A DNA stretch of 62,242 nt from a virus. Lineage: Duplodnaviria; Caudoviricetes. The translations under genes were made by a program, and so were the position numbers. The DNA is taken from IMG/VR virus record IMGVR_UViG_3300027608_000031, positions 1 through 62,242 of that record; one strand, written 5' to 3'. This document shows positions 32,001 through 53,046 of the stretch, one piece after another (the first letter of the stretch is position 1; every line of letters begins with the position of its first letter). Under the pieces are notes generated by a model. The model saw nothing but the letters and a program-made list of their open reading frames with translations. It did no database searches and was not told where the DNA came from.

Positions 32001-32870
32001 TTACTCAGCCCAGTCGTCCAAGATTTCGCTCACATCTTTCGGTGCGGCTTTCTTAGCGCGTTTGGTTGGTTCAGCTTCTTCGGCTGATACGTCTTCTGCT
32101 TTTGCTACAGGTGCAGGTGCGGCTACTGCTTTTGGTTTTGCGCCGTCCAGTGTTGCAGGGGTTGATGCAATCGCAGACTTGGCTTCTGCTGATTGACCCT
32201 TCTCTTGTGCCAATGCCATCTCGTCGGCTTCCAAAGGACGTAGTGCCTTGAACGTTAACTTAGGTGTAGCACTTGCTGTATCGAAACGCATCTCGGTCAC
32301 AACTGCTGTGATTGGCAAACCGTGGCTACCCAAGAACTTAGCATATGCTTGCAAAGGCATTTTGCCGCCCTCAACATTACCAAAGATTGACTGTGCGGGG
32401 AGTGTTAGTTGATACACATCTCCTTTGAGGTCGTTCTCAAGGGTAACTGCCAAGCGTTGGCTGTAACGGCAAGCACGTCCAGCGCCCTGAGTTGCAGAGC
32501 CAGCAATGTTTTGTGCACATGTTGCGCACTTGCCGGACTGTGGTTCGCTGACTTTGGAATCAGGTGAGACTCCATCGTTTGACCAGCATGAGGGGGCGAG
32601 GACTTGTCCTTCAACATAAGTTTCTGCATAGTAACTACGGGATACATGCGGGTTAGCCGCAACAATAACAATCGGCATGGCGCGGTCTTCGTTTTGCGCA
32701 ATTTCTTTGCCGTCAACAATCATGCGGAATACACCGCCTTTGATTGATATACGCTTGCCTGAGCCACCACCCGAACCCATCAAGGCTTTGGTAGTTGCGT
32801 CCAGTTCAAGGTTACGCAAGTGTGCGGGTAGGGTATTGCCACCCTTGGCAAATAAAGTCATTTCACTCAT
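32001..32870 (-). CDS. putative ssDNA-binding/annealing protein
   Basis: RISIKGG.F, CWSNDG..P, C..C..N, acidic/aromatic C-tail ILDDWAE. Confidence 0.65.
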   Translation of the reverse strand: MSEMTLFAKGGNTLPAHLRNLELDATTKALMGSGGGSGKRISIKGGVFRMIVDGKEIAQNEDRAMPIVIVAANPHVSRSYYAETYVEGQVLAPSCWSNDGVSPDSKVSEPQSGKCATCAQNIAGSATQGAGRACRYSQRLAVTLENDLKGDVYQLTLPAQSIFGNVEGGKMPLQAYAKFLGSHGLPITAVVTEMRFDTASATPKLTFKALRPLEADEMALAQEKGQSAEAKSAIASTPATLDGAKPKAVAAPAPVAKAEDVSAEEAEPTKRAKKAAPKDVSEILDDWAE

Positions 32871-33458: not shown

Positions 33459-33487
33459 TGTTCTCTCCTTCTCTCTTTGTGTTGTCC

Positions 33488-33515
33488 ATCATACCGCTAA
33501 ATTTAACATTGTCAA
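33488..33515 (-). promoter_or_regulatory. sigma70 promoter
   Basis: TTGACA (33515-33510), 16 bp, TATGAT (33493-33488). Confidence 0.7.
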
Positions 33516-36382: not shown

Positions 36383-38215
36383 TTAACAATCTCCATAACT
36401 ATCTCCATAGCCAGCCTCACAATTTAATGGTATGCCTTTTGCCCATTCGGGTACGTAGCGCATACAGTCCATCACGTATTGCTTGGCTTCTTCAGCTTCT
36501 TCTTTTGGAGCAACACATGCCACGGCATCGTGAACAGTAAGCACGACACAGTATCTCTTTGCAATTCTCAACATCTGTTCGCCAATGATGCAACGTGCCA
36601 AACCCTGACAAACGTTCTCTGTCAACTTGCCACCATACAGTTTTACTATGCCCTTACGGGAGTCATAGACGTACTGCGTCTTGCCTTGGTCGTCCACCAT
36701 TTTTCGCAAGTTTGGATACCGTTGGTACAAACCGTTAGGCATGAGGATACCATCTTTATGTATCTCAATGCAACCGTTGCCCCACTTGGTTGTTTGCCCG
36801 TTTGCTAGAGCCGTAATCGCCGTGGAGCCTGCTTGCCATAGGGCGGGAATATAGGGGTAGGTTTCTCGATAGGTTTTGATAATCCCTGCGGCTTCTCCCT
36901 CAGTAACTGTGACGTCAAACGTCTTGAGTTGCGCTTGGAACTTCGTACCGCCCATGCCATAACCCGCTCCAAGAATTGTGGTTTTACCCACAAACCGTTC
37001 GGGGTTCGCCTTAGTATCCAAGACTTCTTCGATGGGCTTGCGGTAAATCTGCGATGCCATGATTTTGTATACGTCCTCGCCATTCGCAAATGCCTCCATT
37101 AAGTCTGTTTGTCCCGCAAACCAAGCAAGCACACGGGCTTCAATCTGCGATGAGTCGCAGTCAATAATCACATACCCTTCGGGGGCTAGGATTGCGTTCT
37201 TCAATACCCCCGCGTTCTCGCCACGTGAGGGAAAGTTTTGGAAGTTCAGTTTGTCCGACCCACCCCACCGTCCCGTGTGTGCGGCGTAGTATGAGAGGGG
37301 TACAGGTATCAGTCCTCTTGTGGCAATCCCAATCAACCGCTCGGTGCGCGTCTCTTCAAGCGTAGTCTTATTGCCAAGCCGTGCGGCAACCAGTGCTTGC
37401 ACTCGTATATCTTTGTGGTCAGCCATCGCCTTGAACTCTTCGTCGTTCTTAGCCAGTGCAAGCGTCTCCTTGCCCGTAGTTGGACTTATCTTCATAGGCG
37501 GTTCAACACCCAACTTGCGTAGAACTTCTGCAAACTTCTTGTTGGACATTAAATCTTCGATAGAACAACCTGCTGCTGCAAGTGACTTAGCCTTCCTATC
37601 ACGTACTTGTACAAGATGTTTTTCAAGTAGACCCGGATCGAGCCTTAAAACTGGTTCTGTAAACATCCTGATAGTTGTATCAATCAACTTCAACTCCACC
37701 ATCTTGAATGAAGGTAGTAGTGTTCGGAATAAGTCGTATGTAAGTGTTACGTCGTTCTTACAGTAGTCACCATACGCATCAAGTTGTCGCGTTGTGAAGT
37801 CCTCGCGCTTCAAGTCAATAGCCGCCACAACTTCTCTACCCTTGACGCCAAGCCCATAGTGCACAGCCAACTTCTCAAGACTGCCACCCACCTCAGTACC
37901 ATGCACGGCACGCGCCATGCTCAACGTGTCACCGATAGCCATAGGCTTGATGTTGTAGTGCCAACTTAGTATTGCCATATCAAACATGGCATTGTGTGCA
38001 ACCGCCATGCTGTTAGCCCAGTCAAATCGTTTTAGGAACTCGTAGGTCTGCATGTAGTTACCACTGAACCACTCAGGCTTGCCACCATCCATTTGCACCG
38101 ACACACCAATCACATGGAATCGCGGGTCACGCACATACTCTTCAGTGGTCTGCTTCTTGAACCCTAAGTCCCCACTGGTGTAGTACGTCTCAAAATCTAC
38201 GGTCAATACGTTCAT
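36383..38215 (-). CDS. polA: DNA polymerase family A with 3'-5' exonuclease
   Basis: DFET (ExoI), HNAMFD, TGRW, DSSQIEAR (motif A), R..GK...LG.GYG (B), TVHD (C); start MNVLTV. Confidence 0.92.
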   Translation of the reverse strand: MNVLTVDFETYYTSGDLGFKKQTTEEYVRDPRFHVIGVSVQMDGGKPEWFSGNYMQTYEFLKRFDWANSMAVAHNAMFDMAILSWHYNIKPMAIGDTLSMARAVHGTEVGGSLEKLAVHYGLGVKGREVVAAIDLKREDFTTRQLDAYGDYCKNDVTLTYDLFRTLLPSFKMVELKLIDTTIRMFTEPVLRLDPGLLEKHLVQVRDRKAKSLAAAGCSIEDLMSNKKFAEVLRKLGVEPPMKISPTTGKETLALAKNDEEFKAMADHKDIRVQALVAARLGNKTTLEETRTERLIGIATRGLIPVPLSYYAAHTGRWGGSDKLNFQNFPSRGENAGVLKNAILAPEGYVIIDCDSSQIEARVLAWFAGQTDLMEAFANGEDVYKIMASQIYRKPIEEVLDTKANPERFVGKTTILGAGYGMGGTKFQAQLKTFDVTVTEGEAAGIIKTYRETYPYIPALWQAGSTAITALANGQTTKWGNGCIEIHKDGILMPNGLYQRYPNLRKMVDDQGKTQYVYDSRKGIVKLYGGKLTENVCQGLARCIIGEQMLRIAKRYCVVLTVHDAVACVAPKEEAEEAKQYVMDCMRYVPEWAKGIPLNCEAGYGDSYGDC

Positions 38216-38660
38216 GCGTTCTTTTCTTTCTGTTAGTTGGTTCGTAGCAGTCTTCGGGTGCAAAGACTTCTGCAAGTTTAAGTTCGGGGTGCTTCAGTTT
38301 ACGTATTGCCTTCATCTCAATCTGTCGAATACGCTCCCTTGTTACGTCGTACATCTTTGCTATTTCCTCAAGCATAAAATCGTTGTCAAGATTAATACCA
38401 AATCTAAAGCGCAACACTTTGGATTCTCTAGGCGTTAGCACGTCAAGTATTTCTTGTACAAACGCTGAGACTTCTTTCCTGTACAACTCTTCTTCGGGGC
38501 ACACGTATTCTGTGGGCTGTGGTGGGCATGGCAACTCAGGAAACTCGTCGTCATTTTTATACCCGCCGTAGTAGGCTTGGCGCAATTCATAACCAGCATT
38601 TACCATCGTGCCGTAGGGTATGGTGTGCCCCTTGTTTATTTTGCCGTATGGTCTAGCCAT
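38190..38660 (-). CDS. stand-alone sigma70 region 4 protein
   Basis: LTPRESKVLRFRFGI...LEEIAKMYDVTRERIRQIEMKAIRKLKHP closely matches RpoD region 4; no region 2. Confidence 0.85.
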   Translation of the reverse strand: MARPYGKINKGHTIPYGTMVNAGYELRQAYYGGYKNDDEFPELPCPPQPTEYVCPEEELYRKEVSAFVQEILDVLTPRESKVLRFRFGINLDNDFMLEEIAKMYDVTRERIRQIEMKAIRKLKHPELKLAEVFAPEDCYEPTNRKKRTHERIDRRF

Positions 38661-39982: not shown

Positions 39983-40191
39983 GCCTCCCTCACTTTCATC
40001 ATTGCGTCTGCTAGTTGATAGGCTTTTCTTGCCATGTCTTCAAAACTTTTGACGTTCCATGAACTACCCATGAAACCTTGCATAGCTTTAGCCGCAAAGT
40101 AATCACGTAAGGTCATGCCTTCTTGTGCAAACTGTGATGTGCCGCTATATGGTCTTGGAAATGCTGGTATATCTTTCATATCAACCTCCAA
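39979..40191 (-). CDS. conserved phage protein (GMTLRDYFAA family)
   Basis: PAFP..GMTLRDYFAAKAMQG..AY..ADAM. Confidence 0.8.
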   Translation of the reverse strand: MEVDMKDIPAFPRPYSGTSQFAQEGMTLRDYFAAKAMQGFMGSSWNVKSFEDMARKAYQLADAMMKVREA

Positions 40192-40765
40192 AGATTTGCT
40201 TCAGTCGGTCATACAACTCACGCGCTTGTATAACTGATAGTGAGTTAATCACATCATCGGCTCTCCACCGTAATGTTCTGTGCTCAAATTTCTCTGCCAC
40301 CTTCTCAGGTACCAAGTCGCTAATGCCAACCTGTGTAGCCCTCGCTTCGTTCTTTGCTATCTTTGCCGCACGCGCCATAGCCGCACGCGCGACCATACCT
40401 TTACGTTTGTTCTTCTCCGCTCTTCTACGTGCTATGCGTTCTTCATCAGGCACAACGGTGTAGGTATAGGTGTTGCGTATGCCCCTTGATGTTTCATGCG
40501 TGGTGCTTTGTCGGGCTAAGTAGTTCGCATCGGTCAACTGCTTGAGGATTGATGCAATGTTTTTAAAGGTAATGTTGGGGTACTTCTGCGCTACCCTGTC
40601 ACGTAGTGCAGTGCTCTCGATGTGTGGGTTGTCGCGTATGAACCCAACAATTTTTGCTGTAGTTGTTTGTTTCTTTTCCACGGTCTTCTCCTGTATAGGT
40701 TGTTCGTCTTCTTTATCCCACTCTTGTATGACTTTCGCCATTTGTTCTCTTAAAGTTCCCATCAC
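40181..40765 (-). CDS. putative winged-helix DNA-binding protein
   Basis: I..FIRDNP....L...IASIL.QL....L.R...TY.Y. Confidence 0.6.
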   Translation of the reverse strand: MMGTLREQMAKVIQEWDKEDEQPIQEKTVEKKQTTTAKIVGFIRDNPHIESTALRDRVAQKYPNITFKNIASILKQLTDANYLARQSTTHETSRGIRNTYTYTVVPDEERIARRRAEKNKRKGMVARAAMARAAKIAKNEARATQVGISDLVPEKVAEKFEHRTLRWRADDVINSLSVIQARELYDRLKQIFGG

Positions 40766-44156: not shown

Positions 44157-45131
44157 TTACTCCCTGTAGTTGTTATAAAACGGCGTACCTATTGGCACGC
44201 TCTCTCGTCTGAACGGACGCGCTAGTCGATACACCTTCTCGTTGCGTTTGTAGTCAGCACGCAATGTTTCTGCGGTAGGCACATGGTATTTGTAAGTCCA
44301 CTTGTTAGTGTTTGCTTCCCAAGAACTTTGGTAACTCGTGTGTTTGACCAACATTGCTTGTATACCCTCAACCCAACGCTCACCGTATGGCTCACCATCT
44401 TTGCGTGCAAGCCAATTCGACTCACTTAAATACTCTGTGGCTTTCTCTTTCTTTTGCCATGACGTAGCACCCTCAGTAGTTGGGTCAAAGCCAAGCAAGT
44501 CAGCCATTGGTTGAAAGTAATCTAAGAACGCTTTGAAATCTTCTCGTACTATCTTGGCTCTCTCGCGGTTTAGCACTATCTTGGACTCTTGCACCGTGCC
44601 GTGTGTTGGCTCATAGTACCTAACACCATCTCTTTCGTACGGTACGAAAGTCATATCCAACCCGTTGTTGAAGTAATACATAGGCTCTTGCCCATCGGGT
44701 CGTGTGCACTTGAAATACACCTTAGCCCCATACTTTACAAACTTAATACTCTCAGGCAACAACGCTGAAATGGTTAGGTATGTGGAATAACTATACATGT
44801 AGGTCGGAGTAAAGCGTAACGCGCCATGCTCATTCATCATAAGCAGAGGCCGTGCCGTATCGTGATACTTTTTAAACACGTACTCTTTGGTGAGTGGGTC
44901 TTGCTCACTCTCACGGTGGATAGAACGAAACGCCATACCTACCCAACCATCTTTCTCAAACCAAGTCTCGAATGTGCGTCTGCGTACAGTCAATGGTCGG
45001 CAGTCAACGCCCCCTTTCTTTTTGTGCCCTTGTATTGGTTTGGTTGTGTCGTATAAATGCTTGACCGTCTTGTAGTCAACCATGCGAATGTTGTACCCAT
45101 AAAAATGTTTTGCGTTGTATTCGTTGCTCAT
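44157..45131 (-). CDS. hypothetical protein
   Basis: 324-aa ORF; contains one palindrome copy. Confidence 0.8.
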   Translation of the reverse strand: MSNEYNAKHFYGYNIRMVDYKTVKHLYDTTKPIQGHKKKGGVDCRPLTVRRRTFETWFEKDGWVGMAFRSIHRESEQDPLTKEYVFKKYHDTARPLLMMNEHGALRFTPTYMYSYSTYLTISALLPESIKFVKYGAKVYFKCTRPDGQEPMYYFNNGLDMTFVPYERDGVRYYEPTHGTVQESKIVLNRERAKIVREDFKAFLDYFQPMADLLGFDPTTEGATSWQKKEKATEYLSESNWLARKDGEPYGERWVEGIQAMLVKHTSYQSSWEANTNKWTYKYHVPTAETLRADYKRNEKVYRLARPFRRESVPIGTPFYNNYRE

Positions 45132-45346
45132 TTTCCACCTCCATAAAAATATTTAAGTTCAGACTTCAAGTTGTCTATCTCAATTTGTTTTGGGTCGTCA
45201 TAGTCCAAACTTTCAGTCACGATATAGCCACCACTCTTGGCTAACTTTTCAAGTGCGGGTAAGCACGCCATGTAGGTTGCTTCCTCATCAAACTGCGCAA
45301 CCATGTGCGCCCCCGCTTTTGCTTCAAAATAAACTGCTACTGCCAT
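45128..45346 (-). CDS. hypothetical protein
   Basis: GAGG RBS; V.VYFE......VAQFD.E..Y. Confidence 0.7.
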   Translation of the reverse strand: MAVAVYFEAKAGAHMVAQFDEEATYMACLPALEKLAKSGGYIVTESLDYDDPKQIEIDNLKSELKYFYGGGK

Positions 45347-45373
45347 AAAGTCCTCGCTTTCTTGATACCTGTA

Positions 45374-46549
45374 TTAACTAACATAGATTGCTTTGCCGAC
45401 GGACGGCGTAGGCTTGTACCCACCTGTGATAGCCCAAAGAACTGGGTGTTCCCATGTACCCCACCCACCAACATATCCATCGGTGAGCACTACGACACAC
45501 TCAGGCTTCAAGCCCTTGTCTTTGATGTATCGCGGTATACATGATGGGTCAGTACCCCCACCACCTTCGGGCTTCGTAGACTTAACCAAGTCACCCAACT
45601 TGTCGCGTCCATATATCTCATGCGATGCCACCTCGGTATCCCAATACAACAAGTCAACTAACTCGGGTTGCACATTGATACAGATGGCTTGCACTTCTGA
45701 CAAGAACTCATTGAGTGCTTCACCACCGATAGAACCTGATGTGTCGATAGCGATGACGATGCGCCCCATAGATTCTGATAGCGTGCTTGGCATATACATA
45801 TCGTGTTGCAACCAACGACGATTGACCTTCTGCCATGTGGATACATCTTTACCATCGGCTAGTGAGTTGATGTAGTCACGCAACTGCTCACGCCAATCAA
45901 CCTTGGGCTCAACCAATTCACCCAATGCTCGTGACTGATTGCCACCCATCTTGCCCGCCATAAGTTGACCTTGACGGATAGCCTGATTGACTTCCTTGAT
46001 GTGCTCTTCAATTTCTTTCTGAGTCATACCCGATGGAGTCCAGTCATGCGAATCCAAACCCGCACCTTCGTCACCATCACCACCCTCGCCCTGTCCCTCG
46101 TCCATCAAGATGTCAAACACTTCTTGTGAGTTCATGTCACGGAAACGCTCATCAAGTAGTCCGACCTTGGGCAAGGTCACGAACCCACGCGATGCTTGAG
46201 AGATGTCGTAGATGATGAGGTTAATCACATAGTCGCACGCCATGTTTGCGCACCGCGCGTTCTCCTCGTACAAGTGACGCCACAAGAATGTATGTTGGAA
46301 TGTCTTGTGAAGATTTTCGTGCATGATTAGTCCACGCAAGTCGCTGTCCGATAAGTCACCTATGAACTTACTGCCATACATACAGTCGATGCCGTTGGTA
46401 CAAGCAGTAGGTATATCGTCCGACACCTTGTACTTCCCGACCATGATGATGCTCGCATACTCCATAGTATCTTTGTGTGCCATGAGTTCAACATGGGCTC
46501 GCTCAATCCGCTTGATTGCGGGTAGTGCTTGGGTTGCTGTTACAAACAT
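45374..46549 (-). CDS. DUF2201-type metallopeptidase plus vWA domain protein
   Basis: TACTNG, HENLH (HExxH), N.ACD..IN, MIDAS DTSGS, GGGGT, LTDG. Confidence 0.88.
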   Translation of the reverse strand: MFVTATQALPAIKRIERAHVELMAHKDTMEYASIIMVGKYKVSDDIPTACTNGIDCMYGSKFIGDLSDSDLRGLIMHENLHKTFQHTFLWRHLYEENARCANMACDYVINLIIYDISQASRGFVTLPKVGLLDERFRDMNSQEVFDILMDEGQGEGGDGDEGAGLDSHDWTPSGMTQKEIEEHIKEVNQAIRQGQLMAGKMGGNQSRALGELVEPKVDWREQLRDYINSLADGKDVSTWQKVNRRWLQHDMYMPSTLSESMGRIVIAIDTSGSIGGEALNEFLSEVQAICINVQPELVDLLYWDTEVASHEIYGRDKLGDLVKSTKPEGGGGTDPSCIPRYIKDKGLKPECVVVLTDGYVGGWGTWEHPVLWAITGGYKPTPSVGKAIYVS

Positions 46550-46684
46550 TTAGTTCTCTCCTTCTTCGGTTGGTTCATCATTGACTTCGATACTGAGGAT
46601 ACGAACACCCTCAAATATCTCCACGATTTCATATTCAATATCTGCCTTGTCAAGCAAGTCATACAGTTCTGTTGGTGTTTTCAT
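46550..46684 (-). CDS. small acidic protein, 44 aa
   Basis: Hand translation MKTPTELYDLLDKADIEYEIVEIFEGVRILSIEVNDEPTEEGEN*. Confidence 0.6.
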   Translation of the reverse strand: MKTPTELYDLLDKADIEYEIVEIFEGVRILSIEVNDEPTEEGEN

Positions 46685-46693
46685 ATAACCCCC

Positions 46694-47773
46694 TTACTTA
46701 CGAGCAAACAGATAGTTGTTATCTGCCGCCCACTTAGCGAACATGGGGTTAGTTGCCGCGACCGTACGCTTGGGGCACATGTCACTCATCACGCTTCGTG
46801 CAAACAAACCTTGCGACTCCTTGCTCATGCGTGGTAAGAACTCCATCCATGCGTTCATCGTTGCCTTCTCAATACGCTGTACTGCCTTGGCAATCAACAT
46901 ACACGCCGCCGCCGCACTCGTTGGTACAACCGCAGTTGTTGGTGCTTTGATTAGGTCGTCCCATGAGGTTAGTTGTGTATCCAATGTCACCATCGTCAAC
47001 ATGTTGTGCATAGCCTTCTCACCCACCGAACCCTTCAACGCATGGCACATGATGTCGTTGCCAAGAATCATTGTGTCGTTGATGACGTCCGATGCAGTCT
47101 CCAATGAACGCGGAGTAACGACTGCCATACGAACATCTCGTGGGTCATTGATATACATGTTCTGCTCAGGCTTCTCGTAGTCCTCGAACGATGCCAACAT
47201 CTCAGGGAACTCTTGGATAGTCGCAATGACAATCGGATTCCAGTTGTTGTTGATTGCATAGGTAATCAACTCCTCTGCGTTGGGCTTACCCACTCGTGTC
47301 TGAATCACACGGTTGCGTGCATGTGGCGGTACATTGTCACCAATACCCTCGACACTCAGGTTAGTAGTGGCGAACACGATGCCGTCCAAGTCATACACAC
47401 CAAGCGAACGCTCTTGCATAAGTCGTAGACATGCGTTCATCACGCCACCCTTAGCCTTGCCCAACTCATCGAGCATCATCACAATCTTCTTGCCCTTGAA
47501 GTGCAAGCCGAACTCCTCGTTAGGTACAAAGCGACACACCTCGTTGCCGTCGATGTCCTTAATCTTCGGCACCATGAAGTCGCCAACATCTTTCGTTGTG
47601 ATGTCAACATAGCAGAAGAAGTAGTCCTTCAACTCAGGTTTGTTGCGCAACATCTTGAGGATTGATGACTTACCAATACCCATTTCACCTTGCGCTAAGA
47701 CAGTCCGCTTGTGACCGACCGCCAAGATTAGGTCAGCCGTTTGTTGCAGAGATAAAGATTTATATAAAGACAT
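46694..47773 (-). CDS. AAA+ ATPase (MoxR-like)
   Basis: GEMGIGKS, MMLDE, ATTN, ARNR, TPRS. Confidence 0.9.
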   Translation of the reverse strand: MSLYKSLSLQQTADLILAVGHKRTVLAQGEMGIGKSSILKMLRNKPELKDYFFCYVDITTKDVGDFMVPKIKDIDGNEVCRFVPNEEFGLHFKGKKIVMMLDELGKAKGGVMNACLRLMQERSLGVYDLDGIVFATTNLSVEGIGDNVPPHARNRVIQTRVGKPNAEELITYAINNNWNPIVIATIQEFPEMLASFEDYEKPEQNMYINDPRDVRMAVVTPRSLETASDVINDTMILGNDIMCHALKGSVGEKAMHNMLTMVTLDTQLTSWDDLIKAPTTAVVPTSAAAACMLIAKAVQRIEKATMNAWMEFLPRMSKESQGLFARSVMSDMCPKRTVAATNPMFAKWAADNNYLFARK

Positions 47774-47789
47774 GTGATTCCCCTTTAAG

Positions 47790-48014
47790 TTAATGTGTGT
47801 TGGTTTGGTTGTAGATACCGCGAACGGTATTTGTGAATCTGCTGATTGCTTGGTGCTGAGTCAGCCCTTGAGTTCTGCAATAGACAGCAAGTGTTGATGC
47901 AAGTACGCCCGACGCTAGTGCGGGTGGCATACCCTTACTCATAAGTAAGTCGGTTATCTCCAAACTTATGTTCTTGATTACCTCCTCAGTAAACATGTCT
48001 AAGTTATCGTCCAT
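47790..48014 (-). CDS. hypothetical protein
   Basis: AGGAG RBS. Confidence 0.65.
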   Translation of the reverse strand: MDDNLDMFTEEVIKNISLEITDLLMSKGMPPALASGVLASTLAVYCRTQGLTQHQAISRFTNTVRGIYNQTNTH

Positions 48015-48077
48015 GATTTTCTCCTTTGATAAAAAAACAAATCAACTTTCGTACGGTACGAAACCGTACGATTAAAC

Positions 48078-48947
48078 TCACATCGAAAACTTGTCAAGCA
48101 TGGCGTCAACCTTCTGCTTGGTCTGCTCTCGTGTTAAGTCACTCTCACGCAATACCGATGCGTCAATGCCACGCATGGTTTCCTCCAACTCCATACGCAT
48201 TGCTTCCATGCGTACGTCCCCTGTGATATTGAAGTGTCGCAACAACCCACAAACTTCTATAGCGTTCTCAACTAACGAGTCCCTGAATATCTTGCGCTTG
48301 CCATCTTCTGTATCAGACAGTCGCTCACTCATGCGAGTCAACACATCGTGCAATCTATCCCAAGCATCTTGCATGGCGTCAGTCACACGGGTACTCAACA
48401 CATCTTCGTAGTGCTGTTTCATCTCGCGTAGTCCCTCCTCACCAATGTCTACACGAAAGTCACCCGCAGTAGGTAGTGGGGTAAACGCATAGCGAAACCC
48501 AAACTTACTAACAACTTGCTCACGCATGGGGTAGTCCTCACGATTGAACAAGTCCCCTAGTTGGAAAGCGGCGGACGATACAAGCGTGTCGTACTCATTC
48601 AAGAACGCGTTGACACATGTTGTGAACTGTTGCTCGTACTCAGTCAGTCGTGACTTGTAGTCAATGAATGTTGCCATGTTCAATACCCTGTCACCGTTGT
48701 CACCCCAAGGTTGCGTCACCGTGTAGTGCCATGTACGCACAGCGTTTGCCACCTTGGTTATCTCCTCCAACTTGCCCGAACCCGCCAACAAGTTCTTGTG
48801 ATAGTTACCCGCACGGGTACGGGTAGAGTTCTGTTGGTCAACCGCTTCGCTCACACGCTTGTCCAACTTGCGCCCTGTCCATACAGACAGAGATAGGTTA
48901 ACGATGAGGGCAGAGCCCGACAATTTAGATACAACAACTTCTTCCAT
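48078..48947 (-). CDS. DUF3150-like protein
   Basis: L..S.WTGRKLD, T.PW.D.G.R, LGDLFN..DYP; upstream of AAA/vWA. Confidence 0.7.
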   Translation of the reverse strand: MEEVVVSKLSGSALIVNLSLSVWTGRKLDKRVSEAVDQQNSTRTRAGNYHKNLLAGSGKLEEITKVANAVRTWHYTVTQPWGDNGDRVLNMATFIDYKSRLTEYEQQFTTCVNAFLNEYDTLVSSAAFQLGDLFNREDYPMREQVVSKFGFRYAFTPLPTAGDFRVDIGEEGLREMKQHYEDVLSTRVTDAMQDAWDRLHDVLTRMSERLSDTEDGKRKIFRDSLVENAIEVCGLLRHFNITGDVRMEAMRMELEETMRGIDASVLRESDLTREQTKQKVDAMLDKFSM

Positions 48948-49017
48948 TTGATTCCCTTTCGTACGGTACGAAACCGCGTTTGATTAACTTACACACAATA
49001 CTAACTAACAAGCCTAT

Positions 49018-49046
49018 AGTATAACAACTTTACATGAGTATGTCAA
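49018..49046 (-). promoter_or_regulatory. strong sigma70 early promoter
   Basis: TTGACA (49046-49041), 17 bp, TATACT (49023-49018). Confidence 0.85.
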
Positions 49047-49207
49047 GTAGCGTCCTTCCCAAACACCTCTTGCACCCAACACCCATTCGCATCGAACGCC
49101 ACTTGCATGGTTTCGCACGACTCAGTTATGGCTTGCACCTTGGCATCTGCTTCGGGGCTGTTGGGGTCTTCGATACCCTCGAATTCAAAAACAACTAGCA
49201 CTTTCAT
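49043..49207 (-). CDS. small acidic protein, 54 aa
   Basis: Hand translation MKVLVVFEFEGIEDPNSPEAD...; GGAG RBS, ATGA coupling. Confidence 0.6.
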   Translation of the reverse strand: MKVLVVFEFEGIEDPNSPEADAKVQAITESCETMQVAFDANGCWVQEVFGKDAT

Positions 49208-49440
49208 ATATCACTCCCTAAGTTCTTTTGGTTTGTTTGTTTTAGAGTGGTACTTGCTGCCGCTTGTGTAACGAACATGTACCCACCCTTGCCGTACTCT
49301 TGCACCACAGTCCATGACTTGCGCTCTGCCCGTGCAAAATCTTCTCCGCAAAACAAACACATGCGGTATCCCAATGCCCAACGCTCAGTCGGGAACTCAT
49401 CGCCACATATGTTGCACTCTCTGTAGTTACCAAAACTCAT
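49204..49440 (-). CDS. Zn-finger protein (DksA/TraR C4-like)
   Basis: C..CG..F...R...G...C..CG. Confidence 0.65.
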   Translation of the reverse strand: MSFGNYRECNICGDEFPTERWALGYRMCLFCGEDFARAERKSWTVVQEYGKGGYMFVTQAAASTTLKQTNQKNLGSDI

Positions 49441-49811
49441 GCTTCTTCTCCTTTGTTTGCTCTTTCAATTAAACCTACGCCACCAGTCACGGCAACAACT
49501 CGCATGTCCTCCACACTACACTTCACGGTCTGCACACCTGTCGGTCTGCATTGGGTTCGGTGTCGGCTTGTCGTTTGGCTGAACTGGCTGTCGTTCTCGT
49601 ACCAAACATCTGCCGCGTGGTCATACACAAATAGAGGCCATGTGTATCGGTAGGAATAAACGCCATACAACTTGTTGTCGTACGAGTTCACGCCCCACTC
49701 ACCCCACACATTGCTACCTCTGAACGCTTGGCGGTTCTCCACCCTCTCCCTAGCCTTGCCGTTTGCAATCATTTTGATACTCATATAGTTCCCCTGTTTA
49801 GTTACTTCCAC
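49437..49811 (-). CDS. hypothetical protein
   Basis: Y.VYSY...PLF....W..N...S.TTSRH. Confidence 0.7.
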   Translation of the reverse strand: MEVTKQGNYMSIKMIANGKARERVENRQAFRGSNVWGEWGVNSYDNKLYGVYSYRYTWPLFVYDHAADVWYENDSQFSQTTSRHRTQCRPTGVQTVKCSVEDMRVVAVTGGVGLIERANKGEEA

Positions 49812-49969
49812 TCTTGTCTTTCAAGTTTCAAGCGGTCACGCTCTTCTGCTTTCGTACGGTACGAATGTTCCCGTGGTACTTTCTTATCCACGAACATGCC
49901 AACCCACAACATCTTGTGCTGTGTATGCTTACGATTAGATTCTTTGCGTTCCAATTTATTCTGCATCAT
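49802..49969 (-). CDS. small basic protein
   Basis: Hand translation MMQNKLERKESNRK...ERQEWK*; AGGAG RBS; contains a palindrome copy. Confidence 0.5.
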   Translation of the reverse strand: MMQNKLERKESNRKHTQHKMLWVGMFVDKKVPREHSYRTKAEERDRLKLERQEWK

Positions 49970-50126
49970 CAACTCCTACTTCGCTGAGGGCAACCCAAGC
50001 AACTGCACCGATGAGTGCACCCGCGAACACCATGCCCGCTTCAAACAACCAACCATCTTTGTCGTGGCATAACACCAACATAACAAACGACATTATTAAA
50101 TACGCAATCATTTCAACTTTACTCAT
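49956..50126 (-). CDS. two-TM membrane protein
   Basis: Start MSKVEM with AAGGAG RBS; two hydrophobic segments. Confidence 0.6.
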   Translation of the reverse strand: MSKVEMIAYLIMSFVMLVLCHDKDGWLFEAGMVFAGALIGAVAWVALSEVGVDDAE

Positions 50127-50137
50127 TTGATACTCCT

Positions 50138-50317
50138 TTATAAAACATTCGGACATTCGTCTAACTCTTCTTGTGTAAACCATTGGCGTGCGACCGTATC
50201 GTTTTTCAACTTGTCGTACTCGCCCCATGCTTTGCACACGAAACACGCTTTGTGTATATCAGGGCAACGCTCACCCCAATACTCTGTTATTGCTTCTTCT
50301 ACTTTATTCATTTCCAT
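50138..50317 (-). CDS. small Cys-containing protein
   Basis: Hand translation MEMNKVEEAITEYWGERCPD..CFVCKAW... Confidence 0.55.
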   Translation of the reverse strand: MEMNKVEEAITEYWGERCPDIHKACFVCKAWGEYDKLKNDTVARQWFTQEELDECPNVL

Positions 50318-50652
50318 ACTCCCTTCATACTATTAACCTTGGCTTTCGTACCGTACGAATACTCAGGCACATACCAAACATACAACCTATTCTCTTGTTG
50401 CAACATCTTGTCTGCGTATACCTCATCAAGACTATCTTTGTCTATGTATATCGCTTGCTCTGCTTGCGGTATGTTCACTTTGAACTCATTCACTCCACGC
50501 ACATGTGTCGTGCTTGGCACTCCCGATAAGTGCGCCCACTTCTTAGCCAGTATGACCATGCTCATGCGTGATGAACGGTCGGGCAGTTTGATGGTCGTGC
50601 GTTTAAGCACTTGGTTGGTGACTGTATGCACCAGTTCTAAATTGAGTCGCAT
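50308..50652 (-). CDS. hypothetical protein
   Basis: AAGGAG RBS; contains a palindrome copy. Confidence 0.6.
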   Translation of the reverse strand: MRLNLELVHTVTNQVLKRTTIKLPDRSSRMSMVILAKKWAHLSGVPSTTHVRGVNEFKVNIPQAEQAIYIDKDSLDEVYADKMLQQENRLYVWYVPEYSYGTKAKVNSMKGVWK

Positions 50653-50661
50653 GGTTACTCC

Positions 50662-50865
50662 TTATTCCAAACATTCAAAGTATTGACCAATAACATCGGT
50701 GTTCTCGAAGTTGTTGGTGTCTGCTTGCAGTTGCTCTGCGTCATGGTCTTGAAACCATAGTGCGTCCGCATATGCGCCCTCAGCGTTGCATCTAACTCCG
50801 TATGCCCAACCATTGCCGTGGCTAGTGATTGTGTATTTCCCATCTGCTGTATCGAATTGAGTCAT
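50662..50865 (-). CDS. first early-gene product
   Basis: MTQFDTADGKY..., GAAAGGG RBS, just downstream of the promoter. Confidence 0.65.
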   Translation of the reverse strand: MTQFDTADGKYTITSHGNGWAYGVRCNAEGAYADALWFQDHDAEQLQADTNNFENTDVIGQYFECLE

Positions 50866-50960
50866 GGTGTTCCCTTTCTGTTGACCCTTACACATCGGGC
50901 TTTCGTACCGTACGAAAGTTGCCGTGTCACTCGAAACGCTTTTATTCCGAATGAGCCTTA

Positions 50961-50989
50961 ATTATAAGGGATTTACATGGGCTTGTCAA
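50961..50989 (-). promoter_or_regulatory. perfect-consensus sigma70 early promoter
   Basis: TTGACA (50989-50984), 17 bp, TATAAT (50966-50961). Confidence 0.9.
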
Positions 50990-51000
50990 GTTGTTACTAT

Positions 51001-51028
51001 AAAGAAAAAGCCAGTATTAAACTGGCTT
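51001..51028 (-). terminator. intrinsic terminator
   Basis: aagccagt/actggctt stem, U-tail on minus strand. Confidence 0.7.
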
Positions 51029-51085
51029 AAATGGTGTATGAATATAGAATAACGGTGGGTGTGACTTACTCACACCAAAACTTGT

Positions 51086-51475
51086 TTATACATACTCAAA
51101 TGTATGCCCCATAAATGATGGGCGTCTACCTTTCAGATGGTCGCAAAGGTTTGTGGTGCTTCCACCAAAATGCCGAACAGCATCGCGCTGTGAATCAAAC
51201 AGTTGTTCTGTCTCCTTACAACGAATTCGGGTTGCATGGTTAATGATGCCCTTCAACCCTGCGGTCATTTTGGCTTGCACCTCGGGGGTGCGTGCGTACC
51301 CACTACCTACCTTGTATTTCTCTCTGTCTGCTCGTAGCCCGTTGACATTGCGCACGCCGAGGCTGGTAAGTAGTTCAATCCGTGTCTTTGCGTCTAACAT
51401 AGTGATACTCCGTTCTAAAAAGGTTTTATCCGTAAAGTGCTCTAAGTTTCTAAGCACGAGAATATTGTAAACCAT
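51086..51475 (-). CDS. NUMOD3/NUMOD1-type DNA-binding protein without a nuclease domain
   Basis: RTPEVQAKM (NUMOD3-like), IRC.ET...FDS.RDA...G......LKG....GHTFEY (NUMOD1-like). Confidence 0.65.
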   Translation of the reverse strand: MVYNILVLRNLEHFTDKTFLERSITMLDAKTRIELLTSLGVRNVNGLRADREKYKVGSGYARTPEVQAKMTAGLKGIINHATRIRCKETEQLFDSQRDAVRHFGGSTTNLCDHLKGRRPSFMGHTFEYV

Positions 51476-51795
51476 TTATCCATGCGGTGTACGGGATGAT
51501 AACACCCCTATTATTCCAATATTCTGTGTTTTTTGGATTATGAGCGAGACAAAACAAAGGAAGAGAAAATCTGCATGAATGGTTTCGTACGGTACGAAAG
51601 TTAGGGCTGGTAATGAAATAAAAATTTAGACTTCATATATATTTATTTTATAGAATAATAGAATAATAGGGAATTTTCCAAACGCAAGTGCTTGATTTAA
51701 AAGGCTTTTGTATTATTCTGATAATGAGAATAGATGAGAACTAAATAGAGGATATTACGGCTTACACTAACTTAAACCATCTTGACACTAAACGC

Positions 51796-52015
51796 GTACG
51801 GCCAACTTCGAGGATACAGGTTTCAGGGGAGTAAGGGTTTCGTACGGTACGAAAGTTTGCAGGGTGTTTGTGGTGTGATGTTGTACGGCCAACTTCGAGG
51901 ATACAGGTTTCAAAGGGGTAAGGCTCAAATGGTGAGCCTGCCAGATTGTTTGGCATCGGCACGCGTCAATGTGTTGTAGCATGTTCATAGTGGAACCTTG
52001 GGGGTACAGGTATCA
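51796..52015. repeat. 30-bp direct repeat x2 plus a degenerate third copy
   Basis: GTACGGCCAACTTCGAGGATACAGGTTTCA at 51796-51825 and 51883-51912; aaccttgggggtacaggtatca near 51994. Confidence 0.9.
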
Positions 52016-52035
52016 CAGCCCAAAATGTTTGGGCG

Positions 52036-52061
52036 AAAAAAAAGCCCCCTTTCGGGGGCTT
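52036..52061 (-). terminator. intrinsic terminator
   Basis: aagccccc-gaaa-gggggctt then U-run on minus strand. Confidence 0.85.
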
Positions 52062-52075
52062 AGTGGTTTAGGTGT

Positions 52076-52594
52076 TTACTTGATTTCGACGCCTTCAGAT
52101 TCTAGGTAGGATTTCACGCCTTCGAATAAGGTTTTGATTTCGTCATTCTCAAACGATGCTTGCAAGTCGTTGATGAAACCCTCGAAATCAGCGTCTCTAA
52201 AACATGTAGCAAGTTTGGCTGAAAACTCTTTGGTTGCCTTCGCGCCTTTGCTTGCGCCCTTTGCCTTATTCTTTGCGCGTTGGCCGTTCCAGTCTGTTAC
52301 TGGTTTACCGCTTGCTACATGCGCTTTGAATGTAGGTAGGTAGGTTTGTTGCATGGTCGATTGTGTCTTACCCTTTGCAACGCCACCATCTACGAACGCG
52401 GTGGCAATGGCGCAACCCGTGCCGTCCTTCTTATAAGTACCAACAACAACCTTCGCCTTATGTAAGGCGAGAATGTTAGTGTTAGCCAGTTCGCGCTTCT
52501 GCTCAGCCGTTTGTAACGCGCCCGCCATTTCTGCCACCGCGTTGCCACAGTCTGTAGCGAGTTGCACATTAGAGAGAGTAGAGGATTTAGTCAT
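52076..52594 (-). CDS. hypothetical early protein in its own transcription unit
   Basis: Start MTKSS at 52594 with GAAAGGA RBS; terminator directly downstream. Confidence 0.75.
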   Translation of the reverse strand: MTKSSTLSNVQLATDCGNAVAEMAGALQTAEQKRELANTNILALHKAKVVVGTYKKDGTGCAIATAFVDGGVAKGKTQSTMQQTYLPTFKAHVASGKPVTDWNGQRAKNKAKGASKGAKATKEFSAKLATCFRDADFEGFINDLQASFENDEIKTLFEGVKSYLESEGVEIK

Positions 52595-53046
52595 TTGATT
52601 TCCTTTCGTATGACTGTATCTAATCAGAGCCAATCCCTGAGTCGATGGTTGAACTGTATCACAACCAGCAACAACTTGCACGGGATAGATACAAATTTAC
52701 ACTTTCGTACAGTACGAAAGTTTGAGCGGTATATCCGACCCCACCCCCCGCTTTTAGGATTAGGTACCATACGCGCTACTACTACTCTAATCCGCTCATT
52801 AGATAATCCATTTTTAGAAATAGGTACTCCAGATCGTCACATCACCACACAATTTTTCCCATAGTCTTAACACACACAAACATCTTGTGGTAAGAACAAA
52901 CTACACAGGGTCCGCAGCTTAATGAGGGGGGAGAGGGGTTCTTTTTTAAGTATCCAATCCCAGTTTTTAAGTATCCAATAGACCCCCCCGTCACTTTTTA
53001 TTTTGCCCACCCCCCGGGGGGTATATATTTTTTGGTAAAGTTTCGC

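Follow-up and report, generated by a model that had tools for sequence, protein, structure and literature searches.

The early region of this uncultured freshwater phage carries a short palindrome in nine copies, which raises the question of what reads these sites and what follows when they are occupied. The window, by which we mean the whole stretch of DNA that was analyzed, is the entire virus record (62,242 bp, CheckV 99% complete), so the absence of copies elsewhere in it is genome-wide.

The palindromes and their placement

Scanning the whole record recovers the arms TTTCGTAC-N-GTACGAAW in nine exact copies, at the coordinates claimed in an earlier note on this DNA. The motif TTTCGTACNGTACGAAW starts at 44633, 48047, 48957, 49850, 50344, 50901, 51583, 51838, and 52703 (nine places, exact scan) and has no match in 100 dinucleotide-preserving shuffles; seven of the nine copies are fully palindromic and therefore match on both strands. 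When the 15-nt core TTCGTACNGTACGAA is allowed up to two mismatches across the whole record, the same nine places are returned with no degenerate copy among them (expected 0.30, largest 2). The confinement to the early region that the earlier note had described is thus borne out by both scans, and the sites occupy one region of ~8 kb rather than being spread uniformly over the genome. The centre base on the plus strand reads, in coordinate order, G, G, G, G, C, C, G, G, A, the same G/C/A variation as noted before. The features of the region are as follows, with no strand assigned to the palindromes themselves.

52703 to 52719: palindrome copy 1, centre A on the plus strand, 109 nt upstream of the first early gene ATG and ~14 nt upstream of the conserved box CTATCCCGTGCAA (exact scan, sequence, and upstream-region alignment)
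52676 to 52688, minus strand: invariant 13-mer CTATCCCGTGCAA, from an alignment of 11 divergent upstream regions and the sequence
52076 to 52594, minus strand: first early gene (p52594, 172 aa), the proposed palindrome binder from covariation and a predicted homodimer
52042 to 52061, minus strand: intrinsic terminator 3' of the first early gene, an 8-bp stem with six GC pairs and then a T-run
51796 to 51923, minus strand: two 41-nt direct repeats (51796-51836 and 51883-51923, 93% alike)
51838 to 51854: palindrome copy 2, non-coding, flanked by these two repeats
51583 to 51599: palindrome copy 3, non-coding, directly adjoining an AT-rich block on its downstream side in the sense direction
50961 to 50989, minus strand: early promoter P1, TTGACA-17-TATAAT, 12/12 matches, kept in 11/11 genomes
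50901 to 50917: palindrome copy 4, past P1, with the ATG at 50865 following after 36 nt
50344 to 50360: palindrome copy 5, in the final 12 codons of ORF 50308-50652, with the next start codon 27 nt on
49850 to 49866: palindrome copy 6, within the conserved small ORF 49802-49972
49018 to 49046, minus strand: early promoter P2, TTGACA-17-TATACT with TG, 11/12 matches
48957 to 48973: palindrome copy 7, past P2, ending 10 nt before the ATG of a DUF3150-like gene
48047 to 48063: palindrome copy 8, in the gap separating the DUF3150-like gene from ORF 47790-48014, 33 nt before the ATG of that ORF
44633 to 44649: palindrome copy 9, midway through gene 44157-45131 (324 aa), encoding F-V-P-Y-E

The distances from the end of the -10 box to the palindrome core, remeasured here, agree with those given earlier: 44 nt at P1 (50989-50961) and 45 nt at P2 (49046-49018). 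In all 11 genomes compared (11/11), a palindrome lies 33-45 nt past the -10 of each of two consensus sigma-70 early promoters; a third strong promoter of the window, at 33515, has no copy. Copy 7 does run into the ribosome-binding site of the DUF3150-like gene, as had been pointed out, and supplies part of its Shine-Dalgarno sequence. The three copies previously placed inside coding sequence (44633, 49850, and 50344) are indeed there, the first mid-gene and the other two near the 3' ends of small conserved ORFs.

Upstream of the first early gene, the last six bases of CTATCCCGTGCAA, GTGCAA, form a -35-like element 17 nt upstream of a -10-like TACAGT (52653-52658), and the pair may constitute a putative promoter of this gene's own; in related loci a palindrome copy lies some 123 to 155 nt upstream of where the gene starts. 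The direct repeats share a core, GAAACCTGT(A/T)(A/C)CC, that is found again beside palindromes in relatives, and together with the AT-rich block (about 51610-51760) they suggest an origin-like architecture.

Ten related IMG/VR records hold 108 exact palindrome copies, clustered in the same early region, and none with one mismatch. The window and these relatives, about 72-90% identical in nucleotide sequence, thus contain 117 exact cores and no one-mismatch core, with nine sites in the window and 9-16 in each complete relative, so that the palindrome is a family trait of 11 genomes. Grouped by flank context, the 117 sites form 64 clusters, 32 of which are common to at least two genomes, including one coding-sequence copy. 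At copy 9, the codons are preserved in relatives whose gene product is only 36-38% identical. The centre base is free to change, even between orthologous copies, and the flanks are symmetric, R-S-T[core]A-S-Y. The S at -2 and the S at +16 vary independently, forming Watson-Crick pairs in 23 of the 64 contexts against a shuffled mean of 26.4. Symmetric but independent flanks are what two independent half-sites predict, which supports the earlier reading of fixed arms around a free centre as the signature of a dimeric protein site.

Two site types and residue 84 of the first early protein

Some relatives have no G-type copy at all and instead carry TTCATAC-N-GTATGAA at the same orthologous places, a symmetric switch from G:C to A:T. 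This is the case in 7 of 23 viral loci, which have no G-type copy and 5-12 copies of TTCATACNGTATGAA at orthologous places; orthologous copies have thus been converted in place between G-type and A-type. The switch passes through coding sequence as well, where the ACG codon of copy 6 becomes ATG in A-type relatives (Thr to Met) and the copy 9 place reads F-I-x-Y-E. The placement past promoters is also retained, with the variant palindrome following 16 of 18 strong promoter matches in 10 A-type loci.

We screened for protein positions that follow the site type, using 38 ORF families with 8,539 alignment columns from 24 loci and taking in plus-strand ORFs no more than 10 kb from the first early gene. 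A column was retained if it was fixed within each type, different between types, and not encoded by the motif itself. The sole column retained among these is residue 84 of the first early protein; another covarying protein may lie elsewhere in the genome.

52343 to 52345, minus strand: codon ACC for Thr84, covarying with palindrome base pair 4/12 (Thr with C:G, Val with T:A)

The association was then used as a prediction for 64 metagenome loci fetched after the screen and one contig from a metagenome-assembled genome. Across all 88 loci, Thr84 accompanies G-type sites in 59 of 59 and Val84 accompanies A-type sites in 29 of 29; these loci represent 63 distinct protein sequences, that of the window included (43 Thr and 20 Val). 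When column 84 is left out of the tree, the label switches eight times, and at least five of these changes are forced by well-supported branches. Independent pairs agree in 5 of 5 cases on well-supported branches, for which alone the sign test gives only p = 0.0625, and in 8 of 8 on all branches. Even the close relatives L252 and L272 have different site types. Because one residue changes together with one base pair of all sites, the first early gene product most likely binds at the palindromes.

The predicted structure of this protein is all-alpha, with consecutive helices at 59-73 and 78-95, Thr84 within the second, and a Lys-rich disordered linker at 105-123. Its predicted homodimer scores 0.79 against 0.00 for the best control; contacts agree to 93% or more among three runs, with a partner pLDDT of 79 or higher. 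Among solved structures, 20 of 30 one-chain pairs and 1 of 23 single-chain proteins reached the mark used for this score, counts that are rough when set beside a custom alignment. In the model, the N-terminal helices are paired antiparallel, and residues 82-84, 86-88, and 90-101 lie outside the listed contact residues. The protein has no family in Pfam, PHROGs, or NCBIfam, no recognized DNA-binding domain, and no Pfam methyltransferase or nuclease domain. Its best structural match, a chorismate-mutase-like helical dimer, has a Z score of 5.7, which is below the meaningful level for helical proteins and so assigns no fold. Among 185,579 species genomes, the family is present in one, where it lies on a contig of 9 kb, and the phage accordingly gives no sign of lysogeny.

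Among the candidate binders named earlier, the covariation between residue and base singles out 52076-52594, and the NUMOD-like gene drops out, being absent from the 10 relatives examined. The genes at 51086-51475, 40181-40765, and 32001-32870, which had carried NUMOD or HTH labels, have no such match in Pfam, PHROGs, or NCBIfam. Overall, the dimeric site, the promoter-proximal placement, and the candidate 52076-52594 survive from the earlier interpretation, and the host factor, the partition protein, the remaining candidates, and the first-injected DNA do not.

A proposed early shut-off and the alternatives to it

We consider it probable, with some reservation, that the palindromes are double-stranded DNA operators of the homodimeric first early gene product, which would act as a roadblock that shuts down early transcription. 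Each monomer would read one half-site, 5'-(R)(S)T-TTCGTAC, and residue 84 on the exposed helix 78-95 would read base pair 4, as Thr with C:G and as Val with T:A. The protein would bind just past the two very strong sigma-70 early promoters, about 27-40 bp downstream of their start sites, and further at gene junctions across the roughly 8-kb early operon. The bound protein would block host RNA polymerase and turn early transcription off, and the copy adjoining its own promoter would allow autoregulation, so that the outcome would be repression or an autoregulatory shut-off. In the non-coding stretch that is rich in repeats and in AT, the copies may have the further role of organizing an origin. 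The stoperator-like roadblock network put forward earlier is therefore a reasonable working model, given the promoter placement and the covarying phage protein. What emerges as new is a predicted phage-encoded dimeric DNA-binding protein that has no Pfam family.

The same protein could instead read the motif as an RNA hairpin with a 7-bp stem and a 3-nt loop in early transcripts and thereby act on translation, on the processing or stability of mRNA, or on antitermination, comparable to a phage coat-protein operator or to lambda N at nut. All copies lie in or beside a single leftward transcription unit, and both strong promoters have a palindrome in the 5' leader. A start codon lies within 40 nt in 23 of the 64 contexts, and in 10 it lies 8-15 nt downstream; these copies abutting the ribosome-binding site would also suit translational control and thus count against duplex operators, as does the symmetric G:C to A:T switch, which preserves pairing and looks just like a compensatory change in the stem of an RNA or single-stranded DNA hairpin. 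The sites are also polar relative to the sense strand in both types. The centre base, which would be the loop base, is C in 31 contexts versus G in 14 and A in 25 versus T in 10 for the G-type and C in 31 versus G in 12 for the A-type, even though no base is rarer than C on that strand; in the sense-strand flanks, conservation is lower for the 5' T than for the 3' A. Such polarity is not expected of a dimer that sits with perfect symmetry on duplex DNA, and it weighs against our preferred explanation. Lambda N, too, is encoded by a first gene with a strong terminator behind it, and the proposed binder here resembles it in this respect.

The hairpin is nonetheless weak, the bare stem having only -4.4 kcal/mol, and at 48957 and 48047 the predicted fold prefers competing pairings; covariation does not extend beyond the core. 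Hairpin-binding proteins usually take the loop base as their main determinant, whereas here it is the sole free position, and a symmetric homodimer suits a two-fold symmetric duplex more than a hairpin with its dyad through the loop. Several copies sit past a strong terminator but ahead of the promoter that comes next, and one precedes the putative promoter of the first early gene, places in which an RNA target would be poorly made; a further conserved copy stands midway through a 324-codon gene. The hairpin offered as an alternative in the earlier note is weakened by these observations, and we regard it as unlikely, though more deserving of attention than the other rivals considered below; the target is probably DNA rather than RNA. 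Searching the whole window against Rfam gave no match at the gathering score. Two specific hairpin types were set aside. T7-type RNase III processing hairpins need a long double-stranded stem of roughly two turns, and the stem here is 7-8 bp and is not extended by covariation. Lambda N-nut antitermination uses a recognized, conserved loop with a boxA partner; the loop centre here is the only variable position, and the flanks contain no second conserved element at fixed spacing.

Less likely still is a protein that binds duplex DNA mainly to organize either an origin of replication or a nucleoprotein domain spanning the early region, much as lambda O, papillomavirus E2, and EBNA1 do with palindromic sites near origins. 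In each genome, 2-5 copies cluster in the non-coding stretch with the GAAACCTGT(A/T)(A/C)CC repeats and the AT-rich block (51583-51923 in the window), the cumulative GC skew is lowest near 52 kb, and promoter control accounts poorly for the copies inside genes. The two promoter-proximal placements are, however, the most conserved, and the skew minimum coincides with the switch in transcription direction, so that replication and transcription are not separated by it. An origin role is also compatible with duplex operators. A DUF927 primase-helicase is named among the phage proteins.

A host protein as the reader, with the two types mirroring host orthologues and the Thr/Val change coincidental, is highly improbable. 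The promoters are of the host sigma-70 type, but site type follows a phage residue without exception in 88 loci, through five to eight independent switches, and close relatives differ in type. A scan of the genome collection for the 17-mer gave 44 scattered singletons and one phage-like contig, with no regulon in any scanned bacterial genome, and the host factor suggested earlier is accordingly dropped. The same applies to the partition protein, since a six-frame search of the whole record for PF02195 (ParB_N) had no match, with 10 of 14 control genomes positive. As for first-injected DNA, the cluster lies 8-22 kb from the nearest end in two relatives with direct terminal repeats, which speaks against the idea, weakly, because such repeats may reflect circular assembly only.

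We give equally little credence to the palindromes as selfish or enzymatic targets, whether restriction-modification sites, nicking sites, or miniature mobile palindromes. All 14 core bases are invariant as in enzyme recognition sites, the core holds two GTAC sites (CGTACG if the centre is C or G), and the type switch is a C to T change at CpG in each half-site. The copies are nevertheless orthologous rather than mobile between genomes of only 72% nucleotide identity, with their placement relative to promoters conserved, and they keep to one 8-kb region, although genome-wide GTAC occurs 292 times and CGTACG 20 times; the covarying protein lacks the enzymatic domains noted above. REP/MITE-like mobile palindromes were rejected on the sharing of 32 of 64 flank contexts between genomes and on conversion of type in place.

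A bolder extension of the operator proposal, which we hold only tentatively, is that the two site types are orthogonal regulatory types, in which a Thr/Val toggle and concerted operator conversion create heteroimmunity without lysogeny, driven by co-infection and based on a new fold. The Thr/Val exchange and the conversion of all ~10 operators (20 half-sites) would have toggled specificity at least five times, with rare half-converted or foreign sites (L252, L248, and L250) marking the transitions. Co-infecting relatives would interfere with one another and so drive the switching: once one phage has arrived, its early protein would shut the consensus early promoters of a same-type newcomer, and a switch of type would permit escape. 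If true, this would represent heteroimmunity without lysogeny in virulent phages and a new DNA-binding fold with a recognition rule of one residue and one base pair.

Comparison with known systems

The repressor of Cluster A mycobacteriophages (L5 gp71; TipsytheTRex) binds more than 20 near-identical short sites, some at promoters and many intergenic, which are proposed to stop both initiation and elongation (PMC9283540). These stoperators are described there as asymmetric 13-mers bound by a monomeric two-domain repressor and active in one orientation relative to transcription, and the two DNA-binding domains are proposed to allow the evolution of other immune specificities (PMC9283540). The phage sites described here are similarly numerous and near-identical and lie downstream of two promoters and at gene junctions. 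Unlike stoperators, they are 17-bp palindromes, perfect over 7+1+7, with weak polarity in the centre base and the outermost flank. In place of a monomer with an N-terminal HTH and a second domain, we predict a homodimer with no Pfam or NCBIfam HTH, and the sites are limited to about 8 kb of the early region in a phage without signs of lysogeny. Superinfection immunity in Cluster A mycobacteriophages is reportedly the subject of a separate study (PMC6550527).

On plasmid RK2, the palindromic operator OB is repeated near or far from promoters and serves one global repressor, KorB, a CTP-dependent sliding clamp of the ParB family whose operators lie upstream of promoters (PMC11790492). The repeated palindromic operator on a single element is a shared feature; unlike KorB, the phage lacks ParB_N, and its promoter-proximal sites are downstream of the start site.

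Lambda O iterons and the sites of papillomavirus E2 and EBNA1 provide a further parallel, in which a dimeric viral protein recognizes several dyad-symmetric copies in a control region. Here, too, the sites are concentrated with early promoters and an AT-rich, repeat-rich stretch. They differ in reaching into and between early genes, and no relation in sequence or fold to these proteins was detected. With lambda N/nut and RNA-phage coat-protein operators the phage shares a first early product that would act on sites in early leaders and a possible small hairpin. Those hairpins are recognized through the loop and number one or two per genome, whereas the 9-16 copies here combine a fixed stem sequence with a free loop base.

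The start-associated sequences of Cluster K mycobacteriophages are short, non-palindromic motifs upstream of many start codons that overlap the ribosome-binding site; to our knowledge, their binder has not been reported. Those motifs are always tied to start codons, whereas only 10 of 64 contexts abut one here, and covariation proposes a binder. The protein has no Pfam match to a Cro/cI-type HTH and no fold match above Z 5.7, and its helices 59-73 and 78-95 are consecutive. What it shares with Cro and cI is the arrangement of a homodimer, here predicted (0.79 vs 0.00), on a dyad-symmetric operator, here the palindrome.

Palindrome copies and their conservation in relatives

An exact scan of the 62,242-bp window places TTTCGTACNGTACGAAW, a 17-bp site built on a 7+1+7 palindromic core, at starts 44633, 48047, 48957, 49850, 50344, 50901, 51583, 51838, and 52703 and nowhere else, and 100 dinucleotide-preserving shuffles gave zero matches. 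A search of the window for the 15-nt core at ≤2 mismatches adds no copy (expected 0.30), in agreement with the nine early-region copies listed in the earlier note. Because the window is the entire IMG/VR virus record, rated 99% complete, the confinement to 44.6–52.7 kb holds genome-wide. As that note also described, three copies lie within coding sequence, two stand 44 and 45 nt past the −10 boxes of the promoters P1 and P2, and the copy at 48957 reaches the ribosome-binding site of the DUF3150-like gene. The end of this last copy is 10 nt ahead of the ATG. The surrounding features are as follows:

28.4–52.7 kb, minus strand: replication and early module, encoding a DUF927 primase-helicase, SNF2 helicase, PD-(D/E)XK nuclease, family A polymerase, sigma region-4 protein, DUF2201 metallopeptidase/VWA protein, MoxR-like ATPase, DUF3150-like protein, and many small ORFs
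33480-33515, minus strand: third strong sigma-70 promoter (TTGACA-16-TATGAT), preceding the SNF2 helicase gene
38190-38660, minus strand: gene for a 156-aa protein with sigma-70 region 4 alone (PF04545, E = 1.9e-16)
44157-45131: 324-codon gene
45374-48947, minus strand: trio of DUF3150-like, MoxR-like ATPase (phrog_1297), and DUF2201 metallopeptidase/VWA (phrog_1314) genes
49046-49018, minus strand: P2, near-consensus sigma-70 promoter
50989-50961, minus strand: P1, near-consensus sigma-70 promoter (TTGACA-17-TATAAT)
51008-51028: terminator
51086-51400, minus strand: small accessory gene
51476-52035: non-coding stretch
51796-51836 and 51883-51923: 41-nt direct repeats, 93% alike, flanking one palindrome
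~51610-51760: strongly AT-rich block that follows the two repeats
52042-52061: strong terminator of the first early gene
52076-52594, minus strand: first early gene (172 aa)
52653-52745: ordered elements upstream of the first early gene
~52880: AAGATGTT(T/G), conserved within the divergent intergenic region that separates the early module from the structural one
52943-52979: 16-nt direct repeat TTTTTAAGTATCCAAT, present twice, 21 nt apart
From 53.1 kb, plus strand: structural genes

Clusters of the core also occur in other IMG/VR contigs, and we scanned ten such records in full at ≤2 mismatches. They hold 108 exact copies, none with one mismatch, and a single two-mismatch match; nucleotide identity to the window is ~90% for two records and ~70–73% over the alignable part for the other eight, with G+C from 47 to 55%. 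When 117 sites are grouped into 64 flank-context clusters, the centre base often varies among orthologs (e.g. A/G/C or T/A/T), and the 14 arm bases never do. The copy within the 324-codon gene keeps the codons TTC GTA CCG TAC GAA even in relatives with a protein identity of just 36–38%. In transcription orientation the flanks read R-S-T-core-A-S-Y, where the G/C choice at −2 is independent of that at +16 (Watson–Crick pairs in 23 of 64 contexts; shuffled mean 26.4), so pairing is not under selection beyond the core. K-mers over-represented in the early region were examined for a second element and yielded promoter pieces, AAGATGTTG and TGTGTAAGT, only.

The 9-kb early region gave no megablast match in the cultured-phage collection, and the nearest cultured phages share distant replication genes only (Pseudomonas phage Rollin, 30%; Rhizobium phages, 23%). 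A cyanophage DUF3150 protein shows 29% identity, and a literature search on DUF3150 in freshwater phages found nothing relevant. In all relatives the conserved DUF3150-like/ATPase/VWA trio is located where the palindrome cluster ends downstream. The sigma-70 region 4 protein is found in two of the ten related records (G005 and G010), and the accessory gene at 51086-51400 has no homolog in any of them; for the NUMOD label that the earlier note gave it, Pfam, PHROGs, and NCBIfam returned no match. A DNA contig from an independent run skips from 50999 to 51509, with 103 other letters in between.

Two site types and residue 84 of the first early protein

Loci were collected around homologs of the first early gene regardless of motif. 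Sixteen of the viral loci carry the G-type core of the window, and seven lack any G-type site, with 5–12 copies of TTCATACNGTATGAA instead. This A-type differs symmetrically, the left arm having A for G and the right arm T for C. The window contains no A-type copy, even at one mismatch, and a search of the paper library with five spellings found neither palindrome. Orthologous copies change type, including those behind both promoters and the one within the 324-codon gene (Val to Ile). Site type changes 3–4 times, in a scattered pattern, on each tree of six conserved early proteins (the first early protein, the products from 49811, 49440, and 43957, the ATPase, and the VWA protein), so the switch has recurred within a common backbone.

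We screened for covariation by clustering the plus-strand ORFs of 24 loci within 10 kb of the gene and testing every alignment column, 8,539 in all, in the 38 families with at least four A-type and at least six G-type loci. Only three columns are invariant within each type and also distinguish the types. The palindrome itself encodes two of them (Val/Ile and Thr/Met); the remaining one, residue 84 of the first early protein, is Thr in 16 of 16 G-type loci and in the window and Val in 7 of 7 A-type loci. The codons are ACN versus GTN, so the exchange takes two base changes that are unrelated to the motif. As a prediction test, 64 later-fetched metagenome loci and one MAG contig all conform. Across all 88 loci, some of which are the same contigs in two collections, Thr84 accompanies the G-type in 59 of 59 and Val84 the A-type in 29 of 29; the distinct proteins number 63 with that of the window (43 Thr, 20 Val). 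Mutual information with site type is 0.90 for residue 84 and 0.53 for the next best column. A tree built without column 84 has eight label changes, at least five of them forced by well-supported branches; independent pairs agree in five of five cases (sign test p = 0.0625) and over all branches in eight of eight.

Minority sites appear in four Thr84 loci. At a position that is G-type in its close relative, L252 has the half-converted TTCATACAGTACGAA; L248 and L250 have one full A-type site each, and L269 has C at position 4 in one site. In the closely related L272 (Val84), the orthologous sites are all converted. The half-converted and lone foreign-type sites represent transitional states of the switch within a small clade of near relatives.

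A search of the metagenome proteins gave 297 homologs of the first early protein, none of them named or carrying a Pfam domain, and among 185,579 species genomes its family occurs in one contig only. It has no tblastn match in 50,697 cultured-phage records and no family in Pfam, PHROGs, or NCBIfam. A sequence profile search of the PDB gave nothing below E = 0.018, and Foldseek with the predicted model gave nothing below E = 4; the best VIA-align score (Z 5.7) was to chorismate-mutase-like helical dimers, a value that is not meaningful for helical proteins. The ESM Atlas returned unnamed viral clusters only, with DUF3102 at 0.82 as a lead. Because no known fold matched, we assign no known DNA-binding fold to the protein. 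The AlphaFold model is all-helical (mean pLDDT 81.4), with a long helix (6–46), helices 59–73 and 78–95, a Lys-rich disordered linker (~105–123), and a small C-terminal helical domain. Thr84 lies in helix 78–95 amid the invariant or nearly invariant polar residues S79, T80, Y85, T88, and K90. Two-copy prediction supports a homodimer (score 0.79 versus 0.00 for the best control; at least 93% of contacts agree between runs, partner pLDDT at least 79). Of 30 proteins whose structures are pairs of one chain, 20 reached this mark, compared with 1 of 23 whose structures are single chains; these counts are rough for this alignment. The predicted dimer pairs the N-terminal helices in antiparallel fashion, and residues 82–84, 86–88, and 90–101 are absent from the listed contacts.

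Recognition of the palindrome

The simplest account would be a symmetric dimer of the first early protein on duplex DNA, in which each monomer would use residue 84 to read base pair 4 in its own half-site. A Val facing a thymine methyl and a Thr facing a C:G pair are chemically ordinary. Among the other early proteins considered as binder (the DUF3150-like protein, the MoxR-like ATPase, the VWA/metallopeptidase, and the products from 49811, 49440, and 43957), none has a fixed discriminating column other than motif-encoded ones, and their trees, as far as listed, scatter site type with 3–4 changes. The covariation with a phage residue contradicts the host factor that the earlier note had also entertained, as does a genome scan that found 44 singletons in unrelated taxa and one phage-like contig. 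The note's suggestion of loading sites for a partition protein finds no support, as a ParB_N domain is absent, which likewise argues against ParB/KorB, and the proposed location on first-injected DNA is opposed, if weakly, by two terminal-repeat-flagged relatives in which the cluster lies 8–22 kb from the nearest end. Readings as mobile palindromes or as restriction-type sites fit poorly, since the orthologous copies all fall within 8 kb, while GTAC occurs 292 times genome-wide.

The palindrome might alternatively act as an RNA hairpin target, a reading that the earlier note had also offered. The bare stem reaches only −4.4 kcal/mol, and in the predicted fold at 48957 and 48047 pairings with upstream bases beat the palindrome's own hairpin; the window has no Rfam match, and covariation reveals no extension of the hairpin. 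With a stem so weak and out-competed and no Rfam family, the invariance of the sequence points to sequence-specific recognition rather than structure alone. Sense-strand polarity, however, does not fit a symmetric duplex site. Counts at the centre are C 31, A 25, G 14, and T 10 in the 80 G-type contexts and C 31, G 12, A 8, and T 8 in the 59 A-type ones, so that C (and A) is preferred although C is the rarest base of the sense strand at 21%. On that strand the T flanking the core 5′ is also less conserved than the A flanking it 3′. Direction cannot be read from a perfectly symmetric duplex site, so a transcription- or transcript-linked constraint must act in addition. Because a symmetric duplex site leaves this polarity unexplained, the RNA reading stays alive, although we consider it unlikely. 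Recognition on duplex DNA is favored because the half-site flanks are independent, the centre is free, and some copies are probably untranscribed.

The sole match in the genome collection, L286 (JAIXXE010000033.1), was binned with an alphaproteobacterial MAG from a pond; this 9-kb contig carries a Thr84 homolog and seven G-type palindromes. The contig is probably phage DNA, and its binning is a faint hint of the host, too weak to name one.

Placement at early promoters and proposed role

All 11 genomes have two strong sense-strand promoters, each with a palindrome 33–45 nt past the −10, and the intervening sequence has diverged. These promoter-proximal sites are centred ~35–48 bp downstream of the start points of the two consensus promoters, a distance that is too great for promoter occlusion and well suited to an elongation roadblock. 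A start codon lies 8–15 nt downstream of the palindrome in 10 of 64 contexts and within 40 nt in 23 of 64. X23 is the one metatranscriptome run with part of the region (7% of words) and consists of contigs only; these cover parts of 48000-49034 and 50535-51220, one through P2, and show no transcript starts, ends, or strand. Six relatives keep the promoter of the SNF2 helicase gene, with 11 of 12 matches in five and 10 of 12 in record G004. This promoter is never followed by a palindrome, and it may drive the replication genes independently, apart from the early switch.

Upstream of the first early gene, one copy always occurs ~110–155 nt from the gene start. Alignment of this upstream region from 11 divergent loci gives a fixed order of a G-run TGGGGGGTGGGG, the palindrome, a 5–20-nt spacer, an invariant CTATCCCGTGCAA, a spacer of ~17 nt, and a −10-like hexamer. 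We infer that CTATCCCGTGCAA and the hexamer form the gene's own promoter, which would put the palindrome copy upstream of it; because conservation of this 13-mer goes far beyond what a −35 element needs, it may be the site of a second factor. Behind the strong terminator of the gene, more copies cluster in non-coding DNA. The layout of 51476-52035 resembles that of a replication origin or of a site for another protein, and the repeat core GAAACCTGT(A/T)(A/C)CC is found beside palindromes in distant relatives as well.

In the proposed mechanism, the first early gene product would limit its own operon and shut off the very strong early promoters. The placement of the sites suits the stoperator-like network envisaged in the earlier note; the roadblock itself, like the early shut-off function, is what we infer. 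If this is correct, an orphan protein family would be matched to its exact DNA target from sequence data alone, and a specificity switch of one residue, with Thr for C:G and Val for T:A, would have evolved repeatedly in nature. It would further suggest that abundant uncultured freshwater phages silence strong host-type early promoters by site-specific roadblocks, not by polymerase modification, and the two orthogonal protein–operator pairs with their consensus sigma-70 promoters could offer compact regulatory parts. The repeated toggling of types raises the question of immunity-like groups in lytic phages.

A phage regulator with a dispersed operator set is already known in kind. Stoperator logic has been described for Cluster A mycobacteriophages (PMC9283540), and the roadblock logic proposed here is the same, but with a palindrome and a predicted dimer. 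The protein family itself is new. Also new would be the palindromic, apparently dimeric version placed just downstream of early promoters in what seems to be a virulent phage, and, as read from the sequences, a recurrent one-residue, one-base-pair specificity toggle with concerted conversion of about ten operators.
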